A DNA stretch of 64,000 nt. It comes from Bacteroidota bacterium (GTDB lineage: Bacteria; Bacteroidota; Bacteroidia; Bacteroidales; GCA-2748055). The stretch spans positions 13,437 to 77,436 of the forward strand of contig JBDLIM010000007.1 in NCBI GenBank assembly GCA_039714915.1, in the 5' to 3' direction. The position numbers and the translations under genes are program-made. Below are positions 43,388-55,256 of the stretch, in pieces (the stretch's first letter is position 1; each line of letters begins with the position of its first letter). Below the pieces are notes generated by a model. That model did not search any database. It was not told where the DNA came from and was given only the letters and a program-made list of their open reading frames with translations.

Positions 43388-46329
43388 GGGAAGTAATTTT
43401 TGCACTTGGCTATATGCCACACCGGCTCTGGGGAAGTATTTTACAGGCCCAGTTTCTGGAAAAGGAAAGAGAGAAAGAGTTTTATATCCCCACCGAATAC
43501 ATTCAGAATGATCCGTCCACAAAGGCTTATCAAAGGCTTACACCCATGCAAAGAGCTGTAATTCAGTTTGTGGATGCCTATAGCGACCGGAACCTTCACC
43601 GGGTATTTTCAAAAAAGAAAACTGTAAAGGAGTTTCAGGACAATGTGGATCGGGATGTTATTCAAAAGCACATACGCCCCTTTATTGAGCGGCATATGTA
43701 TCAGGCCCTGGAAATAGCCCGGGATAACAGTTTACGCATATTTGTGAAGGATAAGAGCAACCGGAATGTATTTGAAGAAGATTTTATCAGGATTGAAAGA
43801 CATCCGGCTGATCCGGTATTCATTTTCAGGTACCGGAATGGCTTGTCCTATACACTGAACCTGACTCATGGACAGAACAGGCTGATCCTGAACAATAGCT
43901 TTGCTGAGATTGTCAGCCATGAGCCCTGTGCCTTGCTTCTGAGGGATTCGCTCTTCTTTATCAATGAGATTGATGGCAAGAAACTGAAACCCTTTATGGT
44001 GAAAGAGCAGGTGGAGATACCCGAAAAAGTGGAGCAAAAATATTTTGCAAGCTTTGTCCGGAACAGCCTTCGTGATTTCAAAACCCTTACGGAAGGAATA
44101 GATGTGAAAGAACTTCAAGCTGTCAAAGAAGCCGAACTGGTGCTTGAGGAGGGAATAAATAATCAGCCTGTATGGATACTTTCCTATGTATATAATGGTC
44201 AGGCCATTTATGGGGATAGCGGTATTAGCAGGTTTGTATACTATACGGGGAAGAAAGGATCTCCAGTTTTTGAACGCTTTGAAAGGGATCTTGCCTGGGA
44301 GGAAAGCAAGGCCATAGCATTAAATGAATTGGGTTTTACCTCCAGGGATGGGAAGCAGTTTACCTTGAATAAAAAGTTTAATTTAGCAAATGAAAGTTGC
44401 TTATATTCAGCTATTAATTTTGTTAATGAATCCGGGGTATACCTTGAAGAAGCAGATATTAGGCTAAGACAACGCCTGAACCAGGATTATTACCTGGAAA
44501 AAATTGATCTGCTGCTTGAGTCCAAAGAAAGGGAAGATTGGTTTGACCTGCATATGGTGGTCCGTTTTGCAACGCATGCAGTTCCTTTCTTTGAATTGAA
44601 AAAACACATCCTGGAAGGAAACAGGGAATATCTCCTTCCTGACGGAAAGGTAGCCATCCTGCCGGAAGAGTGGTTTGCGAGGTACAGGTCCATTTTCGAG
44701 TTTGGGAAAATAGAAAAAGACCGGATCCTGATCCACAAGCAGCATTTTTCAATGATGGAGGGTCCGGTCAGGGATTTTCATTCCAAAACCCTTTCCAGGT
44801 TTCAGCAGCTAAATGAAGTTGAATCGATCCCGGAGCGGGGTCTTCCCGGTGGATTGAATGCTGAAATGCGAAACTACCAGGTGGAGGGCTATAAGTGGCT
44901 GTGTTTTCTGCAGCAGAATGGTTTCGGAGGCTGCCTGGCCGACGACATGGGACTGGGAAAGACCTTACAGGCCATAGCGGTGTTATTGCGTTCCAAAGAA
45001 AACCAGAAAAACAAGCCCGAAGGTTCCGGCAGCGATGCAAAGGTTCCGTCGATACATGGACAGCTAGCCATGTTCGGGACCGGCGGTGTGAAGCTAACCT
45101 CACTGATAGTGGCCCCTGCTTCACTTATGCATAACTGGAAAAGTGAAATCAGCCGTTTTGCGCCGGGCATCAAGGTATTTACCCATACCGGTAGTCAGCG
45201 AAACAGGGAGCTTACCAATTTTTCTTACTACGATGTCATCCTGTCCACCTACCATACGGTACGTCAGGATATTTCTACTTTATCCACCTATCCCTTTCAC
45301 TATGTCATCCTGGATGAAAGCCAGATGATTAAGAATCCCTCTTCCAAGCTTTACCAGTCGATCATCGAGCTTCAGTCCGATCATAAGATCGTTTTAACCG
45401 GAACTCCCATTGAGAATTCGCTCACAGATCTCTGGTCGCAGATCAATTTTGTAAATCCCGGTTTGCTTGGGACTTTAAGTTTTTTCAAGCGCAGTTTTGT
45501 GTACTCCATTGAGAAGAAGAAGGATGAGCAGAGGGAGAAAAAACTGAAGGAACTCATAAATCCTTTTATTCTCAGGCGAACAAAGCAGGAAGTAGCTCAG
45601 GAGCTTCCCCCTGTATACGAGCAGATTCGTTATTGCAACATGACGGAAGGGCAAAGGAGGTTTTATGAAGAGGAAAAATCGCTTGCACGAAATTCCATTC
45701 TGGAGAACCTGGAAGAAATGAGCCTTGAAAAATCTTCCATGGTGGTTCTCCAGGCCTTAACCCGCCTAAGGCAGATTGCCAATCATCCTGGCCTGGTTGA
45801 GAATCCCAATGCCCTGGATTCGGGTAAATTTACGGAAGTATACCGGGATATTGAAAGTGTACTTTCCGAAGGTCATAAAGTGCTTATGTTCTCTTCTTTT
45901 GTGAAACATCTGAATCTCTTCAGGACCCGTCTTGATGAGGAGGGGCTGAACTATGCTTATCTGACGGGAGCGCAAAACCATCTGCAGAGACAAAAGGCTG
46001 TACAGGAATTTCAGAACAACCCGGGCTGTTCGCTGTTTCTGATTTCCTTAAAGGCCGGGGGTGTGGGACTGAATCTTACGGCGGCGGATTATGTATTTAT
46101 TCTGGATCCCTGGTGGAATCCGGCTGCTGAAATGCAGGCATTGAACCGGGCGCACCGGATCGGACAGGAGAAGAGTGTCTTTGTTTACAGGTTCATCTCT
46201 AACGATACCATAGAAGAGAAAATTCAAAGGCTGCAGGCGCTTAAAAGAGAATTGGCCAAGGCCTTTGTCACATCGAACAATCCTTTGAAGAGCCTGTCTG
46301 AGAAGGAACTGCTTGAACTTTTTGCTTAG
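43384..46329 (+). CDS. SNF2-family helicase/ATPase with a ~480-aa bacterial N-terminal extension
   Basis: 981 aa with helicase motif I LADDMGLGKTLQAI, motif II ILDESQMIKN, TGTPIENSL, and C-terminal motifs LISLKAGGVGLNLTAADYVFILDPWWNPAAEMQALNRAHRIGQ. It has an ATGA overlap with the AsmA-like gene. Confidence 0.9.
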   Translation: MREVIFALGYMPHRLWGSILQAQFLEKEREKEFYIPTEYIQNDPSTKAYQRLTPMQRAVIQFVDAYSDRNLHRVFSKKKTVKEFQDNVDRDVIQKHIRPFIERHMYQALEIARDNSLRIFVKDKSNRNVFEEDFIRIERHPADPVFIFRYRNGLSYTLNLTHGQNRLILNNSFAEIVSHEPCALLLRDSLFFINEIDGKKLKPFMVKEQVEIPEKVEQKYFASFVRNSLRDFKTLTEGIDVKELQAVKEAELVLEEGINNQPVWILSYVYNGQAIYGDSGISRFVYYTGKKGSPVFERFERDLAWEESKAIALNELGFTSRDGKQFTLNKKFNLANESCLYSAINFVNESGVYLEEADIRLRQRLNQDYYLEKIDLLLESKEREDWFDLHMVVRFATHAVPFFELKKHILEGNREYLLPDGKVAILPEEWFARYRSIFEFGKIEKDRILIHKQHFSMMEGPVRDFHSKTLSRFQQLNEVESIPERGLPGGLNAEMRNYQVEGYKWLCFLQQNGFGGCLADDMGLGKTLQAIAVLLRSKENQKNKPEGSGSDAKVPSIHGQLAMFGTGGVKLTSLIVAPASLMHNWKSEISRFAPGIKVFTHTGSQRNRELTNFSYYDVILSTYHTVRQDISTLSTYPFHYVILDESQMIKNPSSKLYQSIIELQSDHKIVLTGTPIENSLTDLWSQINFVNPGLLGTLSFFKRSFVYSIEKKKDEQREKKLKELINPFILRRTKQEVAQELPPVYEQIRYCNMTEGQRRFYEEEKSLARNSILENLEEMSLEKSSMVVLQALTRLRQIANHPGLVENPNALDSGKFTEVYRDIESVLSEGHKVLMFSSFVKHLNLFRTRLDEEGLNYAYLTGAQNHLQRQKAVQEFQNNPGCSLFLISLKAGGVGLNLTAADYVFILDPWWNPAAEMQALNRAHRIGQEKSVFVYRFISNDTIEEKIQRLQALKRELAKAFVTSNNPLKSLSEKELLELFA

Positions 46330-46904
46330 AATCGATAGCTGAGTGTGGCCATGGCCCCTCCTTTCAAGGGGACAATTCCAAAACCCAGAGAGCTGTAGGA
46401 ATTGTTTACCATATTTCTGGCGGTTTTAGCCCTGGAGTGTGCATAGGAAGTCATGGCTACTATACTTGCTGAACCGAAGATGGCACTGGCGATGGTTAAT
46501 GGAACTGTTGAACCCCAATCCTGGGAAAAACTATAGATCGCCAGCGAAGTGGGCACAAGCGATAATGCATAGAGGGTCCATCCCAGTTTTGCCCTGGGGT
46601 GGGAGATCTCCTTTAGAATTTCTACGGACCGGCCTCCGGCATAAATAAGGGGTGGGGCTGCAAGTATCATGACCGCCGCAGGTATTCCTACGTATGCTGC
46701 ATTCCATTCATTTACCAGTGAAGCCACAAACATGAGCGCCAGAGCCGATGGAGCTGTAACATATCCGGTAGTAACTGCTTCATCGGCCCACCCGGTGGAA
46801 AGGGTCATCTGGGGAACCGAGTCCGGCTTCGTCAGAACCTGCGCGTTCAGGATAACGCAGCTTACAAGCGTGCTGAGTATAATAACAAATGCTCTTGTCC
46901 TCAT
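46326..46904 (-). CDS. Hypothetical membrane protein
   Basis: 192 aa with a signal-like N-terminus, several hydrophobic segments, and an ending of TLSYRF. I recognise no family. Confidence 0.45.
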   Translation of the reverse strand: MRTRAFVIILSTLVSCVILNAQVLTKPDSVPQMTLSTGWADEAVTTGYVTAPSALALMFVASLVNEWNAAYVGIPAAVMILAAPPLIYAGGRSVEILKEISHPRAKLGWTLYALSLVPTSLAIYSFSQDWGSTVPLTIASAIFGSASIVAMTSYAHSRAKTARNMVNNSYSSLGFGIVPLKGGAMATLSYRF

Positions 46905-47371: not shown

Positions 47372-47382
47372 ATATACAACTA

Positions 47383-47407
47383 AGGGGTAAGCTGATCGCT
47401 TACCCCT
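47383..47407. terminator. Hairpin between convergent arfB and the oxidase operon (possible bidirectional terminator)
   Basis: AGGGGTAAGC-tgatc-GCTTACCCCT forms a perfect 10-bp stem with a 5-nt loop. There is no clear U-tract on either side. Confidence 0.45.
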
Positions 47408-47431
47408 CTGAAGTGTAAATGGAAATATTGC

Positions 47432-49057
47432 TTATGAAGCAGGAACAAGGTCCTTGTTCTTGTTCTTTACAGGCTTGAAGATCCCGATGACACCTTCCAG
47501 ACCCACAGTCATTACTATGTTAATGAAAAAGGCCAGGAATGCGATAAGTAATAAGGCTCCACAGATCAAAGCCAGTATCATATAGAGGTCATACTCCCCG
47601 TTAAAATAAAGTGTTCTCCGGAGCATGCCTTTTAATCCGGCCATGCCCATAAAGGCTCCCATTCCAATGCCCCCTATCAGGTGACACCAGAAGTGCAGAT
47701 TGGCCAGTTTCTGGCTGTAGAGTTTTGCACCGTTGGTGAGTAAGGGTAACAATATGTAAATGGCCGCGTATAGGGTCATGGTGAGTCCCACCAGGATAGC
47801 CACATGCACATGGGGTCCCACTATCCACTGAGTGTTATGCAGAATGCGGTTCAGACCCACATCTGCCTGCATAATTCCGGCGGGTACAGCCAGGGCAAAT
47901 CCCAGGAGTCCTCCCAGCAGAAACTTCAGTTCGTTGGTCATTTTTAAAGGTCTGGCAGCCCAGAGAGTAGCCAGGGTAATAAAGAAAGCCAGGCCCTGGG
48001 TAATTAATTCAAATGCCGTAACCATTTCACCGGACAGGACTTTCAGGAATCCGGGTTGAGCCTGGTCAGAAAGAAGGTGATGCGACCATACTGTCCATGA
48101 TACGATGAGCTCAACCAGAAGGGCTGCACGGGCAATGTTTTGCATAAAGAGTTTCTTCCCGGTGATCATGGTGGCCAGCAGGTACCAGGTTCCGGCCACA
48201 AAAATAAGGACCAGACCATCAGCAATCAGATCAAGGCCCCACCAGAACCAGTTCTTATAAAGCAGGGCATCCACAGCTGTTTCCTTCAGATCATATCCGA
48301 GGATGGCTGCTACCATGTAGACAAGGATGAGCACACCCGTAAACAGGATGATTCCTGCATTCAGCGCCATATCAACTGTACCCCTGGCAATTGCTGCAAC
48401 AGGAAGGGATACCAGGTGTTCTTTGCGCTTATTTTTCTTTTTAAAGAGATTGCCGAAGCCTGCTGTCCCCAGGGCCGATCCCAGCAATTTGCCGGCAGGT
48501 TGTTTCTCCCACCCCTCTGGTGTATAGGAAATGGTCTTAAATATGTTAATAATAAAGAAAACCGAACCCAGCATGACAAGGGCAATTCCAAGTATGAAGA
48601 TGGCTCCTCCTACCGGATTGAATTGAGAGAAATCAGCCGGTAAGGGCCAGTAGAGCGTATAAAGTGGTGCATAGTGAGAAATAAATCCGGCCAGCCAGAA
48701 AATTAAGGTTCCGGCTGCGATCAGGATGAAGTTCCAGTGAGCCAGCTTCATGCTGTAGAGAGGTTTCTTCATAAGGAATGGGACCAGGAAGAGGAATGCT
48801 CCACAGACTATGGAGTAAGTCGAGCCAAAGATCCCCACCAGGGGGTGAGCTGTAAGTATGGCAAAGTACTGGACATCGGAGACCATGTCGATTTGCTCCA
48901 CTTGAATGACTCTCATAATCATTCCTTCCACCAGGACAAAGAGATAGAAGACCAGTCCGACGACTACAAAACGCAGGGTAAGTTTTTGCATGGCGGTGAG
49001 GGTTTCGGATTTGAATAATCCCTGTTCGCCTTTCATAAGGGTATTAATAAATGACAT
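47432..49057 (-). CDS. Heme-copper oxidoreductase superfamily subunit I, atypical active site (NO-reductase-like)
   Basis: 541 aa with about 12 TM helices. The conserved HCO histidines are H71 (LTAHPLVGIFG), H326/H327 (WSHHLL) and H416/H418 (LHNTQWIVGPHVHV). The helix-VI motif reads WFWWGLDLIADG, so Asp276 occupies the position of the metal-ligand His and Asp280 that of the cross-linked Tyr. Confidence 0.85.
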   Translation of the reverse strand: MSFINTLMKGEQGLFKSETLTAMQKLTLRFVVVGLVFYLFVLVEGMIMRVIQVEQIDMVSDVQYFAILTAHPLVGIFGSTYSIVCGAFLFLVPFLMKKPLYSMKLAHWNFILIAAGTLIFWLAGFISHYAPLYTLYWPLPADFSQFNPVGGAIFILGIALVMLGSVFFIINIFKTISYTPEGWEKQPAGKLLGSALGTAGFGNLFKKKNKRKEHLVSLPVAAIARGTVDMALNAGIILFTGVLILVYMVAAILGYDLKETAVDALLYKNWFWWGLDLIADGLVLIFVAGTWYLLATMITGKKLFMQNIARAALLVELIVSWTVWSHHLLSDQAQPGFLKVLSGEMVTAFELITQGLAFFITLATLWAARPLKMTNELKFLLGGLLGFALAVPAGIMQADVGLNRILHNTQWIVGPHVHVAILVGLTMTLYAAIYILLPLLTNGAKLYSQKLANLHFWCHLIGGIGMGAFMGMAGLKGMLRRTLYFNGEYDLYMILALICGALLLIAFLAFFINIVMTVGLEGVIGIFKPVKNKNKDLVPAS

Positions 49058-49084
49058 AATGAAGTTTTTTAGGTTAATATGGGA

Positions 49085-49648
49085 TTACTCAGAGATGCTG
49101 CCTTCGGGAACAACTTCCACGGCATTTTCTATGACCATGGCTACCCCCTTTGGACCTGAGTACTCGGTCGACCGAATGGTATAGACACCAGGTTTCAGAA
49201 ATTTCCAGATGATATCGTTCCGGTGACCCGGTACCACCTGCATCTGAAATAACATGGAGTTATCCTGTCTGAACAGTCCAAACCCATAGGTGAGGTCCAG
49301 AGAAGTGACATCGAATTCCACAATTTCACCGACCTCCACAATCATTTTCTCATCTGGAAGCAGGAATTCATGATTGGCCACATCGATGGCAAAACTCCTG
49401 TCGGGAGTGATCTCGTGACGTTTGAGATCCATTTCCGACCAGGGAATGGTATTATAGGTTATGATGTGCAGGGAAACTCCCAGCACGGTCAGGAATCCGA
49501 CAAAAGTGTAAAATAATGCCGGTTTCACTGTGCTTTTTCCTGGCTTGGTTATACGTAATGCGAACCATGCCATTACCAGTATAATAACCAAACTATAACA
49601 GGTATAAGCAATTGTTTGTCCTTTCAGGACGAGGGCTGAATCAACCAT
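49085..49648 (-). CDS. Oxidase subunit II-like cupredoxin protein lacking CuA ligands
   Basis: 187 aa with two N-terminal TM helices and a ~110-aa beta domain. The positions corresponding to the CuA His and the CxExCxxxH motif read DLTYGFG and RSTEYSGPKGVAM, with no Cys or His. There is no heme c motif. Confidence 0.6.
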   Translation of the reverse strand: MVDSALVLKGQTIAYTCYSLVIILVMAWFALRITKPGKSTVKPALFYTFVGFLTVLGVSLHIITYNTIPWSEMDLKRHEITPDRSFAIDVANHEFLLPDEKMIVEVGEIVEFDVTSLDLTYGFGLFRQDNSMLFQMQVVPGHRNDIIWKFLKPGVYTIRSTEYSGPKGVAMVIENAVEVVPEGSISE

Positions 49649-49718
49649 ACGACTTCCGTTTTTTAGCTTAGTTTAACATAAAATGCTACCCAATTATAGC
49701 ATATAAATATAAAAAAAA

Positions 49719-50129
49719 TCAATGTTTCATATCAGGATTTTTCATTTGAGCCAATGTAGTGTTTTTGAGCACATTAAGTAAGATTTCCCGGGTCTTGGCC
49801 CAGGGCTTATGCATGACACAGGAATGGTTAAACGGACATTGTTCTAGTCCCATTATGCAGGTTCCCAGTACATCCAGCCCTTCCACAGAGTCTATTATAT
49901 CAGCCAGGGTGATTAGGTCGGTCGACTTCTGCAATACAAATCCGCCATTTCGACCCTGTACACTGTCAATGAAACCGCTTTTTGACAGGCTTGTGAGCAA
50001 TTGTCGGAGGTAGGGCCAGGGAATTTTCAGGATCTCATTGAGCTGTTTGGCAGAGTATTTCTCACCTTTATGATCAGCCAGAAAGCTGAGGGTCATTAAG
50101 GCATATGAGGTTGTTTTGCTAAAATTCAT
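49719..50129 (-). CDS. Rrf2-family transcriptional regulator with three-Cys Fe-S ligand motif (NsrR/IscR-like)
   Basis: It has an N-terminal wHTH (MNFSKTTSYALMTLSFLADHKGEKYSAKQLNEILKIPWPYLRQLL) and the Cys cluster GTCIMGLEQCPFNHSCVMH (C-x6-C-x5-C). The start is placed at ATG 50129; the ORF-track start at 50147 is a TTG. Confidence 0.85.
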   Translation of the reverse strand: MNFSKTTSYALMTLSFLADHKGEKYSAKQLNEILKIPWPYLRQLLTSLSKSGFIDSVQGRNGGFVLQKSTDLITLADIIDSVEGLDVLGTCIMGLEQCPFNHSCVMHKPWAKTREILLNVLKNTTLAQMKNPDMKH

Positions 50130-50217
50130 ACCTGCGGGAGTGCACAATCAGATGGTGCCGATTAAATGCGATTCGAATATAGCAATTACTACGGTTATGA
50201 CGAAGTTATTACATGAT

Positions 50218-50225
50218 TATCTTTG
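50218..50225 (+). promoter_or_regulatory. Candidate -7 promoter element TATCTTTG upstream of the GT2 gene
   Basis: It matches TAnnTTTG and lies 20 nt upstream of the ATG at 50245. Confidence 0.35.
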
Positions 50226-50244
50226 TCAACAAATATCCTGATAT

Positions 50245-53732: not shown

Positions 53733-55256
53733 TTAATTGTTTACAGCTGGAGCATCGGGTTCACAAACTACCCTGAATCCCACGGACATGCAATCGGAAT
53801 ACCACCAGACGCTTTTTGGGATCTGGGGATCGGTCTTCATCCAGGGTTCTGTTTTTGTAATATTCCGGGATGCACAACGGACAAAATCAGCAGTTTCCAT
53901 AAAGGAGCCACCTCTGATCACATGTTCTTCTCCGGACGCTGGCCCGCTGGGATTTAAAACGGTTCCCTCAGGATATTGGGAATAGGCATCAGCTGCATAC
54001 CAGTCTGAACAGAACTCGGCCACATTCCCAAGCATATTGATCAGTCCAAAGGGATTCTCCCTGATCTGATCCGGACCGGCAGTTCGGGCCATGCTGTTTT
54101 CACTATAATAAATGTAACTGTTAATTCCGAAAGTATCCACACCAAATAGTTTATTTCTGATGCCTTTATTCACATATCGCTTCGGATCACCCTCGAAGAA
54201 ATAAGCTGAATTGGTACCACCCCTGGCAGCATATTCCCATTCAGCTTCTGTAGGCAGCCTGTAGGTTTTCCCTGTAATCTTTGTCAGCCACCGGCAATAT
54301 ACTTCAGCGGCATGATGGGTCATAGTAATGGCCGGCCTTCTGCCTTTGCCCCAGCCCTGATCAGGAGCGCCATAGGGAGGAGTGGGCCCCGAGATTGCAT
54401 CCACATCTCCCAGGTCCGTTTGGATAAAAGTATCTGTGGTTTTTATCTGAGATTCTGTCTGTTTAAAGAAGGCAAGGTACTCATTCCACGATACTTCAAT
54501 CTGAGCCATAAAGAAGGAATTAACCTCTACTTCCCTCACTGGTCCTTCATCGTCCTTTCGGAAGGGCTCATCCTCAGGGCTGCCCATCTGGAAGGTGCCT
54601 CCTGGGATGGCTATCATTTCAAAACTTACATTGGAGCCGGGAATATACTCTGTAAAGCTATTGAAGCCTTCCACTACTCCCGGTTCTGTATAGATTTCAG
54701 TGTCCTCCACTTCGGCAATTCCAAAATCGGTATTCTTTGCATGCAGCCGGTCCGGATCATAATGGCCAACTGTGATATGGCAATTGATGCAGTGCAGGTC
54801 ACCCTCCTGTTGTTCGTAATAAAGATGTGCCTCTCTTCCTTCAGCTGTCAGGCCCAAGGGGAAATTATTCTGGTGACAATGGATACAGGCAGCTTCGAAG
54901 CTGTGGTTTTTAGCGTATTCAATCCGGGATTTTAATTCCCAGTTGAAACTCTCCGGATCTTTAAATAACTTTCCCCAGAGATCGCGAAGACCGGTACGCG
55001 TCTTTTCTGCCAGGTATCCTTCGCCATGGGGAGGTAAATGACAGTCCACACAGTGTACATGGATTCCATGTTTATTATCATGGTGCGTGGAAAGCTTCCA
55101 GCTCTGGGTAGAGTGGGGATGGATATGGCACGAGGCACAGAAATCATCTGTGGAGGTGGCTGATATTGCCTTATTTCCAAAAAAGATGATCCCTGCAGTT
55201 AACACCACCCCGGTAAGGAAGAGCAGCCTGCCAGTATTTGTGCTTTTTAGTCTCAT
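53733..55256 (-). CDS. Fusion protein: NapC/NirT-type membrane-anchored tetraheme cytochrome c plus an FGE/SUMF1-like (sulfatase-modifying-factor fold) domain
   Basis: 507 aa with an N-terminal TM anchor and four CxxCH motifs in the first ~165 aa (CASCH, CVDCH, CIHCH, CINCH). The C-terminal ~300 aa carry FGE-family motifs (IPGGTFQMGSPEDE, VSWNEYLAF, YRLPTEAEWEYAARGG, GNVAEFCSDWY, IRGGSF). Confidence 0.8.
   Translation of the reverse strand: MRLKSTNTGRLLFLTGVVLTAGIIFFGNKAISATSTDDFCASCHIHPHSTQSWKLSTHHDNKHGIHVHCVDCHLPPHGEGYLAEKTRTGLRDLWGKLFKDPESFNWELKSRIEYAKNHSFEAACIHCHQNNFPLGLTAEGREAHLYYEQQEGDLHCINCHITVGHYDPDRLHAKNTDFGIAEVEDTEIYTEPGVVEGFNSFTEYIPGSNVSFEMIAIPGGTFQMGSPEDEPFRKDDEGPVREVEVNSFFMAQIEVSWNEYLAFFKQTESQIKTTDTFIQTDLGDVDAISGPTPPYGAPDQGWGKGRRPAITMTHHAAEVYCRWLTKITGKTYRLPTEAEWEYAARGGTNSAYFFEGDPKRYVNKGIRNKLFGVDTFGINSYIYYSENSMARTAGPDQIRENPFGLINMLGNVAEFCSDWYAADAYSQYPEGTVLNPSGPASGEEHVIRGGSFMETADFVRCASRNITKTEPWMKTDPQIPKSVWWYSDCMSVGFRVVCEPDAPAVNN

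Follow-up and report, generated by a model that had tools for sequence, protein, structure and literature searches.

The gNOR family of presumed NO reductases, described by Hemp and Gennis in 2008 and by Murali et al. in PNAS in 2024 (PMC11214002), is defined by the replacement of an active-site histidine with aspartate and by a cupredoxin subunit without CuA (PMC11214002), and aspartate also occupies the position of the cross-link tyrosine (PMC8756737, Table A4). Its members show kinship to A- and B-type oxidases and come from anoxic or sulfidic habitats, and none of them has been purified or biochemically characterized; according to a 2026 paper, eNOR is still alone among the new clades in having its activity confirmed. 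Curated gNOR references include Damo_1118 and proteins of Sulfurimonas and Persephonella, and Tenuifilum thalassicum (GCF_013265555.1) is a carrier in culture. The hosts belong to Bacteroidota, Chloroflexota, Thermoproteota and Actinobacteriota, of which Bacteroidota is the largest in the tables of Murali et al., and these tables place the family in Prolixibacteraceae, Paludibacteraceae, Marinilabiliaceae, Ignavibacteria and Methanomethylicia.

Several other described systems provide points of comparison. The NO reductases cNOR and qNOR (NorB) combine a heme with a non-heme metal and carry a carboxylate one helical turn past the helix VI metal ligand. In the ba3 oxidase of Thermus thermophilus, the ligand histidine, a His-Tyr cofactor and the complete CuA site are all present. 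Cytochrome bo3, an O2 reductase of the A family whose CuB site and tyrosine are intact, has a subunit II without CuA and receives its electrons from quinol. On the regulatory side, NsrR and IscR have the winged-helix Rrf2 fold, a three-cysteine cluster site and AT-rich palindromic operators beside the genes that they regulate.

Locus layout and the catalytic subunit

In the window, by which we mean the whole 64-kb stretch of DNA that was analysed, three co-directional minus-strand genes at 47432–50129 form a compact unit, as the original prediction had described, and all three open reading frames were confirmed together with their coordinates. They encode, in this order, an Rrf2-family transcription regulator of 136 aa (49719..50129), a subunit II composed of an N-terminal membrane anchor and a predicted, CuA-less cupredoxin domain (49085..49648), and a gNOR-type catalytic subunit I of 541 aa with about 12 transmembrane helices (47432..49057), with intergenic gaps of 70 nt between the first two genes and 27 nt between the second and third. 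For the Rrf2 gene, a start at the ATG at 50129 agrees with the start of its homologues (55 compared). The arrangement recurs in related loci: the subunit II gene adjoins that of subunit I in 79 of 80, and an Rrf2 gene lies immediately 5′ in 59 of the 80, with gaps down to 2–4 nt. On the 3′ side of the subunit I stop, a minus-strand hairpin with an 11-bp stem (47382..47408) is likely to be a terminator common to subunit I and the convergent arfB gene, an assignment that we keep tentative because there is no run of T after it.

Pfam COX1 recognizes subunit I at 9.3e-54, and in Foldseek the AF2 model of the protein (pTM 0.81) superimposes on oxidase subunit I with TM-scores of about 0.7; judged by this profile match and predicted fold, which it shares with the ba3 enzyme, the protein is a member of the superfamily of heme-copper oxidoreductases (HCOs). 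The pLDDT of the model falls below 50 at residues 62–72, 325–332 and 399–411, which cover the histidine ligands H71, H326, H327 and H407.

The claim that five of the six canonical HCO histidines are kept was verified, with H71, H326, H327, H416 and H418 all present. Helix VI carries the motif WFWWGLDLIADG at residues 270–281, and histidine is absent from the protein between residues 215 and 325, which means that the third one of the active site is lost in any alignment register, including any alternative helix VI register in which a ligand histidine might be sought. Four MAFFT modes place D276 (codon 48230..48232, minus strand) opposite the histidine of 11 of 12 outgroup HCOs and D280 (codon 48218..48220, minus strand) opposite their tyrosine, asparagine or glutamine, and a gapless BLASTP alignment to protein P0193 likewise sets D276 against histidine. 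The two substitutions originally proposed, Asp276 for the third histidine and Asp280 for the cross-link tyrosine, are thus borne out. HMMER and hhalign put a leucine in the helix VI histidine column, by way of gaps and in two mutually inconsistent alignments; we preferred the register of the MAFFT and BLASTP alignments, which is gapless, the region being devoid of histidine.

Both aspartates are under strict conservation. Among 20 family members from Bacteroidota, Chloroflexota, Actinobacteria and Thermoproteota, with 42–84% identity to the window protein, the invariant residues are H71, W272, D276, D280, H326, H327, E350, H407, H416 and H418, and the two aspartates are therefore shared by Bacteria and Archaea. 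Helix VII offers no tyrosine that could have migrated into the cross-link role. The cNOR equivalent of D280 is Glu211 in the P. aeruginosa structure, and D280 thereby corresponds to the carboxylate that cNOR and qNOR carry past their helix VI ligand. The FIND preprint attributes to gNOR a His-to-Glu change of a heme ligand; such a change is absent here, as H71, H416 and H418 are invariant in the family.

On this basis, H71 and H418 would be the ligands of the low-spin heme and H416 that of the high-spin heme, and the second metal site would be formed by H326, H327, D276 and probably D280. Such a carboxylate-rich site of two histidines and two aspartates would be closer to the FeB site of cNOR than to CuB, although cNOR and qNOR use three histidines and a glutamate at FeB. 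As both the ligand histidine and the cross-link tyrosine are missing, four-electron reduction of O2 is not expected, and the likely reaction is 2 NO + 2 e- + 2 H+ -> N2O + H2O, which would be shared with cNOR and qNOR, as would the pairing of a heme with a non-heme metal.

Subunit II, the electron donor and family membership

The subunit II family profile finds its best PDB matches in the CuA domain that belongs to subunit II of Thermus ba3, namely 1ehk_B at 4.3e-5 and the engineered variant 6pty_A at 8e-7. The profile alignment shows Y121 and G168 at the positions of the two histidine ligands of CuA and S160 and S164 at those of the cysteines, with M171 kept; the claim that every CuA ligand has been lost accordingly holds for four of the five side-chain ligands but not for the methionine. 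A search of subunit II for the heme c motif CxxCH found none, in agreement with the original prediction. None of the ligand histidine, the His-Tyr cofactor and the full CuA site of the Thermus enzyme is found at this locus.

As CuA and heme c are both missing from subunit II, the electrons most likely come from menaquinol, by analogy with the CuA-less bo3 oxidase, which is also the best PDB match of the subunit I family profile (1e-21). The invariant residues E44 and R49 of subunit I lie, in the HMMER alignment, opposite the aspartate and arginine of the bo3 FADAIMMR motif, and this aspartate we take to be the quinol-site residue Asp75. The analogy has its bounds: the other quinol-site residues of bo3 are not conserved in the locus subunit I, where Q63 and A66 occupy the positions of His98 and Gln101, and bo3 differs in its intact CuB site and tyrosine.

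Searched against the PDB, the subunit I family profile finds A- and B-type oxidases about equally well (1e-17 to 1e-22) and C-type enzymes less well (about 1e-9 to 1e-11), and no cNOR or qNOR chain is among its 50 matches at E<=1e-3. The nearest family is thus ba3 for subunit II and the A and B families alike for subunit I. The lineage is separate from that of cNOR and qNOR, and the locus has neither a NorC cytochrome c nor a fused quinol domain. Homologues were found in families of Bacteroidales and Ignavibacteria and in Methanomethylicia, where published tables place gNOR, and the Bacteroidales/Ignavibacteria clade is large, the search having yielded >3000 clusters of proteins and, in a one-genome-per-species collection, 391 stretches that were confirmed.

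All of the published defining features that we examined are present, namely aspartate at the histidine and tyrosine positions, a CuA-less cupredoxin partner, A/B-type relatives and a matching host range, and in the features compared the enzyme does not differ from published gNORs. At the level of sequence, this supports the conclusion that the locus encodes a gNOR, and, as these features are the published hallmarks of the family, the earlier tentative assignment was right. The accompanying description of the enzyme as novel in type does not stand: gNOR has been named since 2008, a paper by Sievert et al. of that year reportedly also treats the family, and gNORs are routinely annotated in metagenomes. 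The enzyme type is already known, and what is apparently unreported is its probable regulation by an Rrf2 protein.

The Rrf2 regulator and its candidate operators

The regulator matches Pfam Rrf2 at 1.4e-30. It had been likened to NsrR on the strength of a C-x6-C-x5-C ligand set, and these cysteines (C91, C98 and C104) are indeed present and, among 55 homologues, are kept in at least 98%; conservation also includes H107, extending the pattern to C-x6-C-x5-C-x2-H. The analogy to NsrR itself is weak, however. With the NsrR equivalog the regulator reaches 53.4 bits (cut-off 182), the models for SUF regulator and IscR give higher scores, and the regulator stays below the cut-offs of all of the NCBIfam equivalogs for SUF regulator, IscR, RirA and NsrR, which sets it apart from both NsrR and IscR proper. 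Going by its ligand pattern, the Cys3-His set is IscR-like and not NsrR-specific, and the signal that the regulator senses could be O2, iron or Fe-S status rather than NO.

A 26-bp palindrome, TAAATGATACCTATAGGTATCATTTA, marks Rrf2–gNOR operons and is present in 47 of 55 upstream regions. Counting exact 5-mer inverted repeats gave a weak signal, and the motif was found after mismatches had been allowed and a position weight matrix (PWM) built. The window contains two copies, both within the gNOR operon. The first, an operator-like imperfect palindrome 5′ of the Rrf2 gene (50163..50188; minus strand TAATTGCTATATTCGAATCGCATTTA), lies at −59 to −34 from the Rrf2 ATG and scores 17.8 bits, compared with a maximum of 15.2 in 1100 shuffled upstream regions. 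The second, between the Rrf2 and subunit II genes (49680..49705; minus strand TATATGCTATAATTGGGTAGCATTTT), scores 23.9 bits despite lying outside the training set, with the next best score in the window at 1.3; it overlaps a TATAAT-like box, and a promoter-like match extends across 49722–49693. The closest relatives (loci L001 and L003–L006) have a palindrome at the same position as this second site, and further palindromes occur farther upstream of the Rrf2 gene in loci L025, L027, L037 and L048; the PWM search found none near the downstream neighbour genes of related loci. The original prediction had suggested looking for an NsrR-type inverted repeat in 50130–50244 and 49649–49718. Both intervals do contain a palindrome, but its half-site spacing differs from that of the E. 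coli NsrR site, which is 11-1-11.

The Rrf2 gene and the palindrome are specific to the Bacteroidota/Ignavibacteria clade of gNOR, and other clades have ArsR-type, Crp/Fnr-type or archaeal HTH_10 genes nearby instead. The literature that we searched contained no mention of an Rrf2 gene and palindromic operator together with gNOR. In the mechanism that we propose, C91, C98, C104 and H107 probably bind an Fe-S cluster, and the regulator probably binds at both copies of the 26-bp palindrome, keeping its own gene and the structural genes repressed; damage to the cluster or a change in it, such as NO might cause, would end the repression.

Proposed role, alternative readings and implications

The reading that we favour, at a probability of roughly 0.6, is a self-regulated gNOR operon in which a 2-His/2-Asp NO reductase, supplied by menaquinol and controlled by the Rrf2 protein, serves NO detoxification. 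That the role in this Bacteroidales host would be detoxification and not respiratory denitrification is suggested by gene content: the 64-kb window contains no nir, nar, nap or nos genes, and most Bacteroidota gNOR genomes are without NirK or NirS (of 48 such genomes examined in the Murali et al. table, nirK or nirS is present in only 2 and absent in 46).

The neighbourhood of related loci bears on the substrate. Split YeeE/YedE sulfur-transporter genes and rhodanese genes lie 3′ of the operon in 8–9 of 63 loci and hint at sulfur rather than nitrogen chemistry, and a TusA gene occurs near the gNOR copy of another clade. Together with the published enrichment of gNORs in sulfidic habitats and the IscR-like, not NsrR-like, ligands of the regulator, these observations favour a substrate other than NO, be it in low-level scavenging of O2 or H2O2, in N2O reduction or in a sulfide- or sulfur-stress reaction, but we regard such a substrate as unlikely. 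In some loci the genes beside the operon instead encode DUF438-hemerythrin-PAS, DUF1858/DUF2249 or hemerythrin proteins, and hemerythrin, DUF438 and DUF1858 are gene types of NO-stress regulons. Complete reduction of O2 is, moreover, considered improbable in this superfamily for an enzyme without the tyrosine cofactor (PMC11214002).

A respiratory, energy-conserving NO reductase, taking the NO step in a full or partial denitrification chain, seems to us distinctly unlikely. Murali et al. did propose gNOR as a denitrification enzyme, and in their tables the genomes of Persephonella and Sulfurimonas combine it with nap, nirS and nos genes; at this locus, a NapC/NirT-type cytochrome gene lies 4 kb from the operon (53733–55256). 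Set against this are the missing denitrification genes detailed above and the character of the gNOR unit, which is a stand-alone module whose flanks change between loci and whose regulator is of a stress type.

We attach a similarly small probability to a broader proposal, in which the Bacteroidota gNOR would be a horizontally mobile three-gene cassette under an Fe-S (Rrf2) sensor, with a reaction other than plain NO detoxification. This might be a sulfide-tolerant chemistry tied to sulfur trafficking, at which the sulfidic habitats and the neighbouring YeeE/rhodanese and TusA genes hint, and, were the proposal true, ‘gNOR’ would be a misnomer for the largest clade of the family.

An ordinary cbb3-type or B-type cytochrome oxidase, which is how such proteins are publicly annotated (the NCBI name of close homologues is ‘cbb3-type cytochrome c oxidase subunit I’, and the Pfam COX1 match is common to all such oxidases), is hardly credible, given that the scores with the ccoN equivalog TIGR00780 (60.9 bits; cut-off 583) and with CtaD (102; cut-off 670) both fall short, that CcoO/CcoP heme c subunits are absent and the partner is a cupredoxin lacking CxxCH, and that the third histidine, the tyrosine and the CuA ligands (M171 excepted) are all missing.

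The public label therefore wrongly implies that the hosts respire oxygen. The gNORs are one of four proposed NO reductase families that together may explain much of the unrecognized N2O production in nature. In the Bacteroidales/Ignavibacteria clade, gNOR usually occurs alone, without a nitrite reductase, and its pairing with a dedicated Rrf2 regulator and operator argues for detoxification over denitrification in these anaerobes. The regulator and the well-defined 26-bp operator also provide a handle on the signal that induces gNOR, whether this is NO, O2 or iron/sulfur status.

The active site of subunit I and its assignment to gNOR

The 541-aa catalytic subunit (subunit I; 47432–49057, minus strand; Pfam COX1, 9.3e-54) contains all of H71, H326, H327, H416 and H418, and its helix VI motif WFWWGLDLIADG occupies residues 270–281, with the codon of D276 at 48230–48232. 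Its AlphaFold2 model (pLDDT 76.7, pTM 0.81) has about 12 transmembrane helices and gives TM-scores of about 0.7 against structures of oxidase subunit I. The original prediction placed D276 in the column of the ligand His and D280 in that of the cross-link Tyr. MAFFT bears out both placements: in four modes it aligns W272 with a conserved Trp in all 12 outgroup heme-copper oxidoreductases (HCOs) and D276 with His in 11 of them, and the outgroups show Tyr (eight), Asn (three) or Gln (one) at D280.

The residue assigned to the ligand-His column varies with the aligner: BLASTP against P0193, a homologue of 25% identity with the motif WWGLH, runs without a gap across helix VI, with His opposite D276, and HMMER and hhalign open gaps within the helix, with Leu in that column. 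We looked for a His at the ligand position in another register, and subunit I holds none between residues 215 and 325; a third His is therefore unavailable in any register, which makes the disagreement between aligners immaterial. In the gapless alignment D263 and D276 lie 13 residues apart, and Asp and His have the same spacing in the A-family motif DPILYQHLFWFFGH. Across 20 family members (42–84% identity to the window protein), W272, W273, G274, L275, D276, A279, D280 and G281 of helix VI are invariant, as are H71, H326, H327, H407, H416, H418, E44, R49 and E350. The invariance of the heme ligands H71, H416 and H418 in this alignment is unlike the His-to-Glu heme-ligand substitution claimed for gNOR in the FIND preprint (bioRxiv 10.1101/592808).

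The proposed NO reductase family gNOR is the sole HCO family in which an active-site His is swapped, for Asp; it is kin to the B family, occurs mainly in sulfidic environments, has a cupredoxin subunit without CuA residues and may oxidise quinol (Murali et al., PMC11214002). Its residue at the Tyr position is Asp (PMC8756737, Table A4). GTDB holds 156 gNORs, led by Bacteroidota (57) and followed by Campylobacterota (37), Chloroflexota (22), Thermoproteota (12) and Actinobacteriota (8) (Murali et al. preprint, Supplementary Table 2). The hosts include Prolixibacteraceae, Paludibacteraceae, Marinilabiliaceae, Lentimicrobiaceae, VadinHA17, Tenuifilum thalassicum, Ignavibacteria and Methanomethylicia (Supplementary Table 4), the same lineages in which homologues of the window protein are found. 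All testable defining features and the matching host range support what had been a tentative assignment, and on these grounds we put the probability that the enzyme belongs to gNOR at roughly 90%. The description 'novel-type' does not hold, as the enzyme type is already known, though uncharacterised; according to a 2026 paper, eNOR is the sole new clade with confirmed NO reduction.

Family extent and relatives

A protein search returned 3198 homologues of subunit I at E ≤ 1e-10, the top 120 at 81–93% identity, and, with each species represented by one genome, a scan confirmed at least 391 stretches. The best 80 of these come from metagenome-assembled genomes (MAGs) of Bacteroidales, Ignavibacteria, Chlorobiota and Saprospiraceae, with cold seeps, sulfidic caves, fens and lake sediments as the source of many. 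A set of 1.84 billion representatives at 50% identity contains only two close full-length clusters, P0121 (74%) and P0123 (47%; hosts Thermoprotei, Methanomethylicia, Actinobacteria, Anaerolineae and Dehalococcoidia), and the next full-length relatives do not exceed 33% identity. The family profile matches A-type bo3 (1e-21), B-type ba3 (4e-17) and C-type (1e-9 to 1e-11) chains, and no cNOR or qNOR chain at E ≤ 1e-3.

Two more distant HCO homologues differ in their ligands. P0193 (Nitrospinota/Nitrospirota MAGs, 472 aa; helix VI motif WWGLHSYVN) has Asn at the Tyr position and Tyr in place of the helix X high-spin-heme His (H416 in the window protein), and may represent another atypical HCO family. 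In P0213 (462 aa, Logan assembly) Arg replaces the helix VI ligand, the two His of helix VII give way to Gln and Leu, and the entire CuB-type site is apparently lost.

Subunit I scores far below the cut-offs of the CtaD, CcoN and SoxB NCBIfam equivalogs. The public name of this protein and its homologues P0013, P0022, P0055 and P0118, 'cbb3-type cytochrome c oxidase subunit I', is a misannotation that would wrongly imply oxygen respiration in these anaerobes.

Operon, partner subunit and regulator

The Rrf2 gene (49719–50129; Pfam Rrf2, 1.4e-30), the 187-aa subunit II open reading frame (49085–49648) and the subunit I gene all lie on the minus strand, separated by 70 and 27 nt, and a strong hairpin follows the last of them (47408–47382, minus strand). 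The Rrf2 start ATG at 50129 is the start in nearly all homologues. In the best 80 of the at least 391 loci, subunit II adjoins subunit I in 79 and Rrf2 stands immediately 5′ of the pair on the same strand in 59; in some the gap from Rrf2 to subunit II shrinks to 2–4 nt, which indicates one operon. The window's flanking arfB, GT2 glycosyltransferase and SNF2 helicase genes are common only to the six closest of these 80 loci; in other loci the flanks are different, so that this unit acts like a portable module. Across Bacteroidales, Ignavibacteria, Chlorobiota and Saprospiraceae in the 80 loci, the identity of subunit I to the window's is 76–91%, whereas that of the adjacent Rrf2 protein is only 24–72%; together with the differing flanks, this points to extreme constraint, to spread of the module by horizontal transfer, or to both. 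Also in the window, 46326–46904 (minus strand) encodes a predicted membrane protein of 192 aa that matches no Pfam or NCBIfam model and is kept only in the closest relatives among the loci compared; its end and the stop codon of the convergent SNF2 helicase gene overlap by 4 nt.

The best solved relative of a subunit II profile built from 16 homologues is the CuA domain of Thermus ba3 subunit II. In that alignment Y121, S160, E162, S164, G168 and M171 correspond to ba3 His114, Cys149, Gln151, Cys153, His157 and Met160. Subunit II had been said to have lost every CuA ligand: the two Cys and the two His are indeed lost, but the Met is kept. CxxCH is absent, in line with the predicted lack of a heme c motif, and the homologues share DLTYGFG and RSTEYSGP as invariant motifs.

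In the regulator, C91, C98, C104 and H107 are kept in at least 98% of 55 homologues, a ligand set that we take to be the IscR rather than the NsrR pattern. Of the proposed NsrR/IscR-type Fe–S ligand set, the Cys triad is present, but the protein reaches only 53 bits against the NsrR equivalog cut-off of 182. Upstream regions of the 55 homologues yielded a 26-bp palindrome (consensus TAAATGATACCTATAGGTATCATTTA) that mostly abuts the Rrf2 start codon. Its position weight matrix exceeds the shuffle maximum (15.2 bits, 1100 shuffles) in 47 of the 55 regions, a count that is partly circular because the matrix was trained on them. As an independent test, a scan of the entire 64-kb window gave only two matches, the next best scoring 1.3 bits: 50163–50188 (17.8 bits) and 49680–49705 (23.9 bits; outside the training set). 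They lie in the two intervals suggested for an inverted repeat, 50130–50244 and 49649–49718. The 49680–49705 site overlaps a TATAAT-like box, and the closest relatives (L001, L003–L006) likewise carry a site 54–60 nt 5′ of subunit II. In other clades the regulator genes near the subunit pair are instead of the ArsR, Crp/Fnr or archaeal HTH_10 type. In the literature searched, no paper names gNOR together with Rrf2, and Rrf2-based regulation of gNOR appears to be unreported.

Genomic context and proposed function

Among 63 loci with downstream DNA, 8–9 carry a split YeeE/YedE (Sulf_transp; two half-size genes) and rhodanese genes after the operon on the same strand (L015, L025, L031, L039, L040, L046, L053 and L064), and L086, from another clade, has TusA near its gNOR copy; these neighbours suggest a possible connection of gNOR with sulfur or sulfide chemistry. 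DUF438–hemerythrin–PAS (PAS_10; 6 of 63), ferredoxin–DUF1858–DUF2249 (4 of 63) and cupin (4 of 63) genes also occur downstream, and a stand-alone hemerythrin gene adjoins the gNOR genes in the P0123 clade; this set recurs at L023, L026, L044, L045, L057, L066 and L079, and at L081, L082 and L086.

Genes of the nir, nar, nap and nos types are absent from the 64-kb window, which otherwise carries housekeeping genes, and 46 of the 48 Bacteroidota gNOR genomes examined in Murali's table lack nirK and nirS. Elsewhere in the window, 53733–55256 (minus strand) encodes a 507-aa fusion that joins an N-terminal tetraheme cytochrome c of the NapC/NirT type (four CxxCH motifs; Pfam 4.5e-28) to a C-terminal FGE-sulfatase (formylglycine-generating-enzyme-like) domain (2.9e-44); it adjoins two proteins with TAT signals, a GFO/IDH/MocA oxidoreductase and a xylose-isomerase-like TIM-barrel protein.

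We propose that the enzyme would pair heme b with a centre of heme b3 and non-heme Fe, the latter held by H326, H327, D276 and probably D280, which stands where cNOR has the FeB-ligand Glu. It would reduce NO to N2O. Menaquinol is the likely electron donor, because CuA and heme c are lacking, Bacteroidota use menaquinone and the invariant E44 falls opposite the Asp of the motif FADAIMMR in bo3. Holo-Rrf2 would repress the operon until its cluster is modified, and the physiological role would be NO detoxification. What this locus adds to gNOR is the link to Rrf2, the operator and an argument for detoxification.
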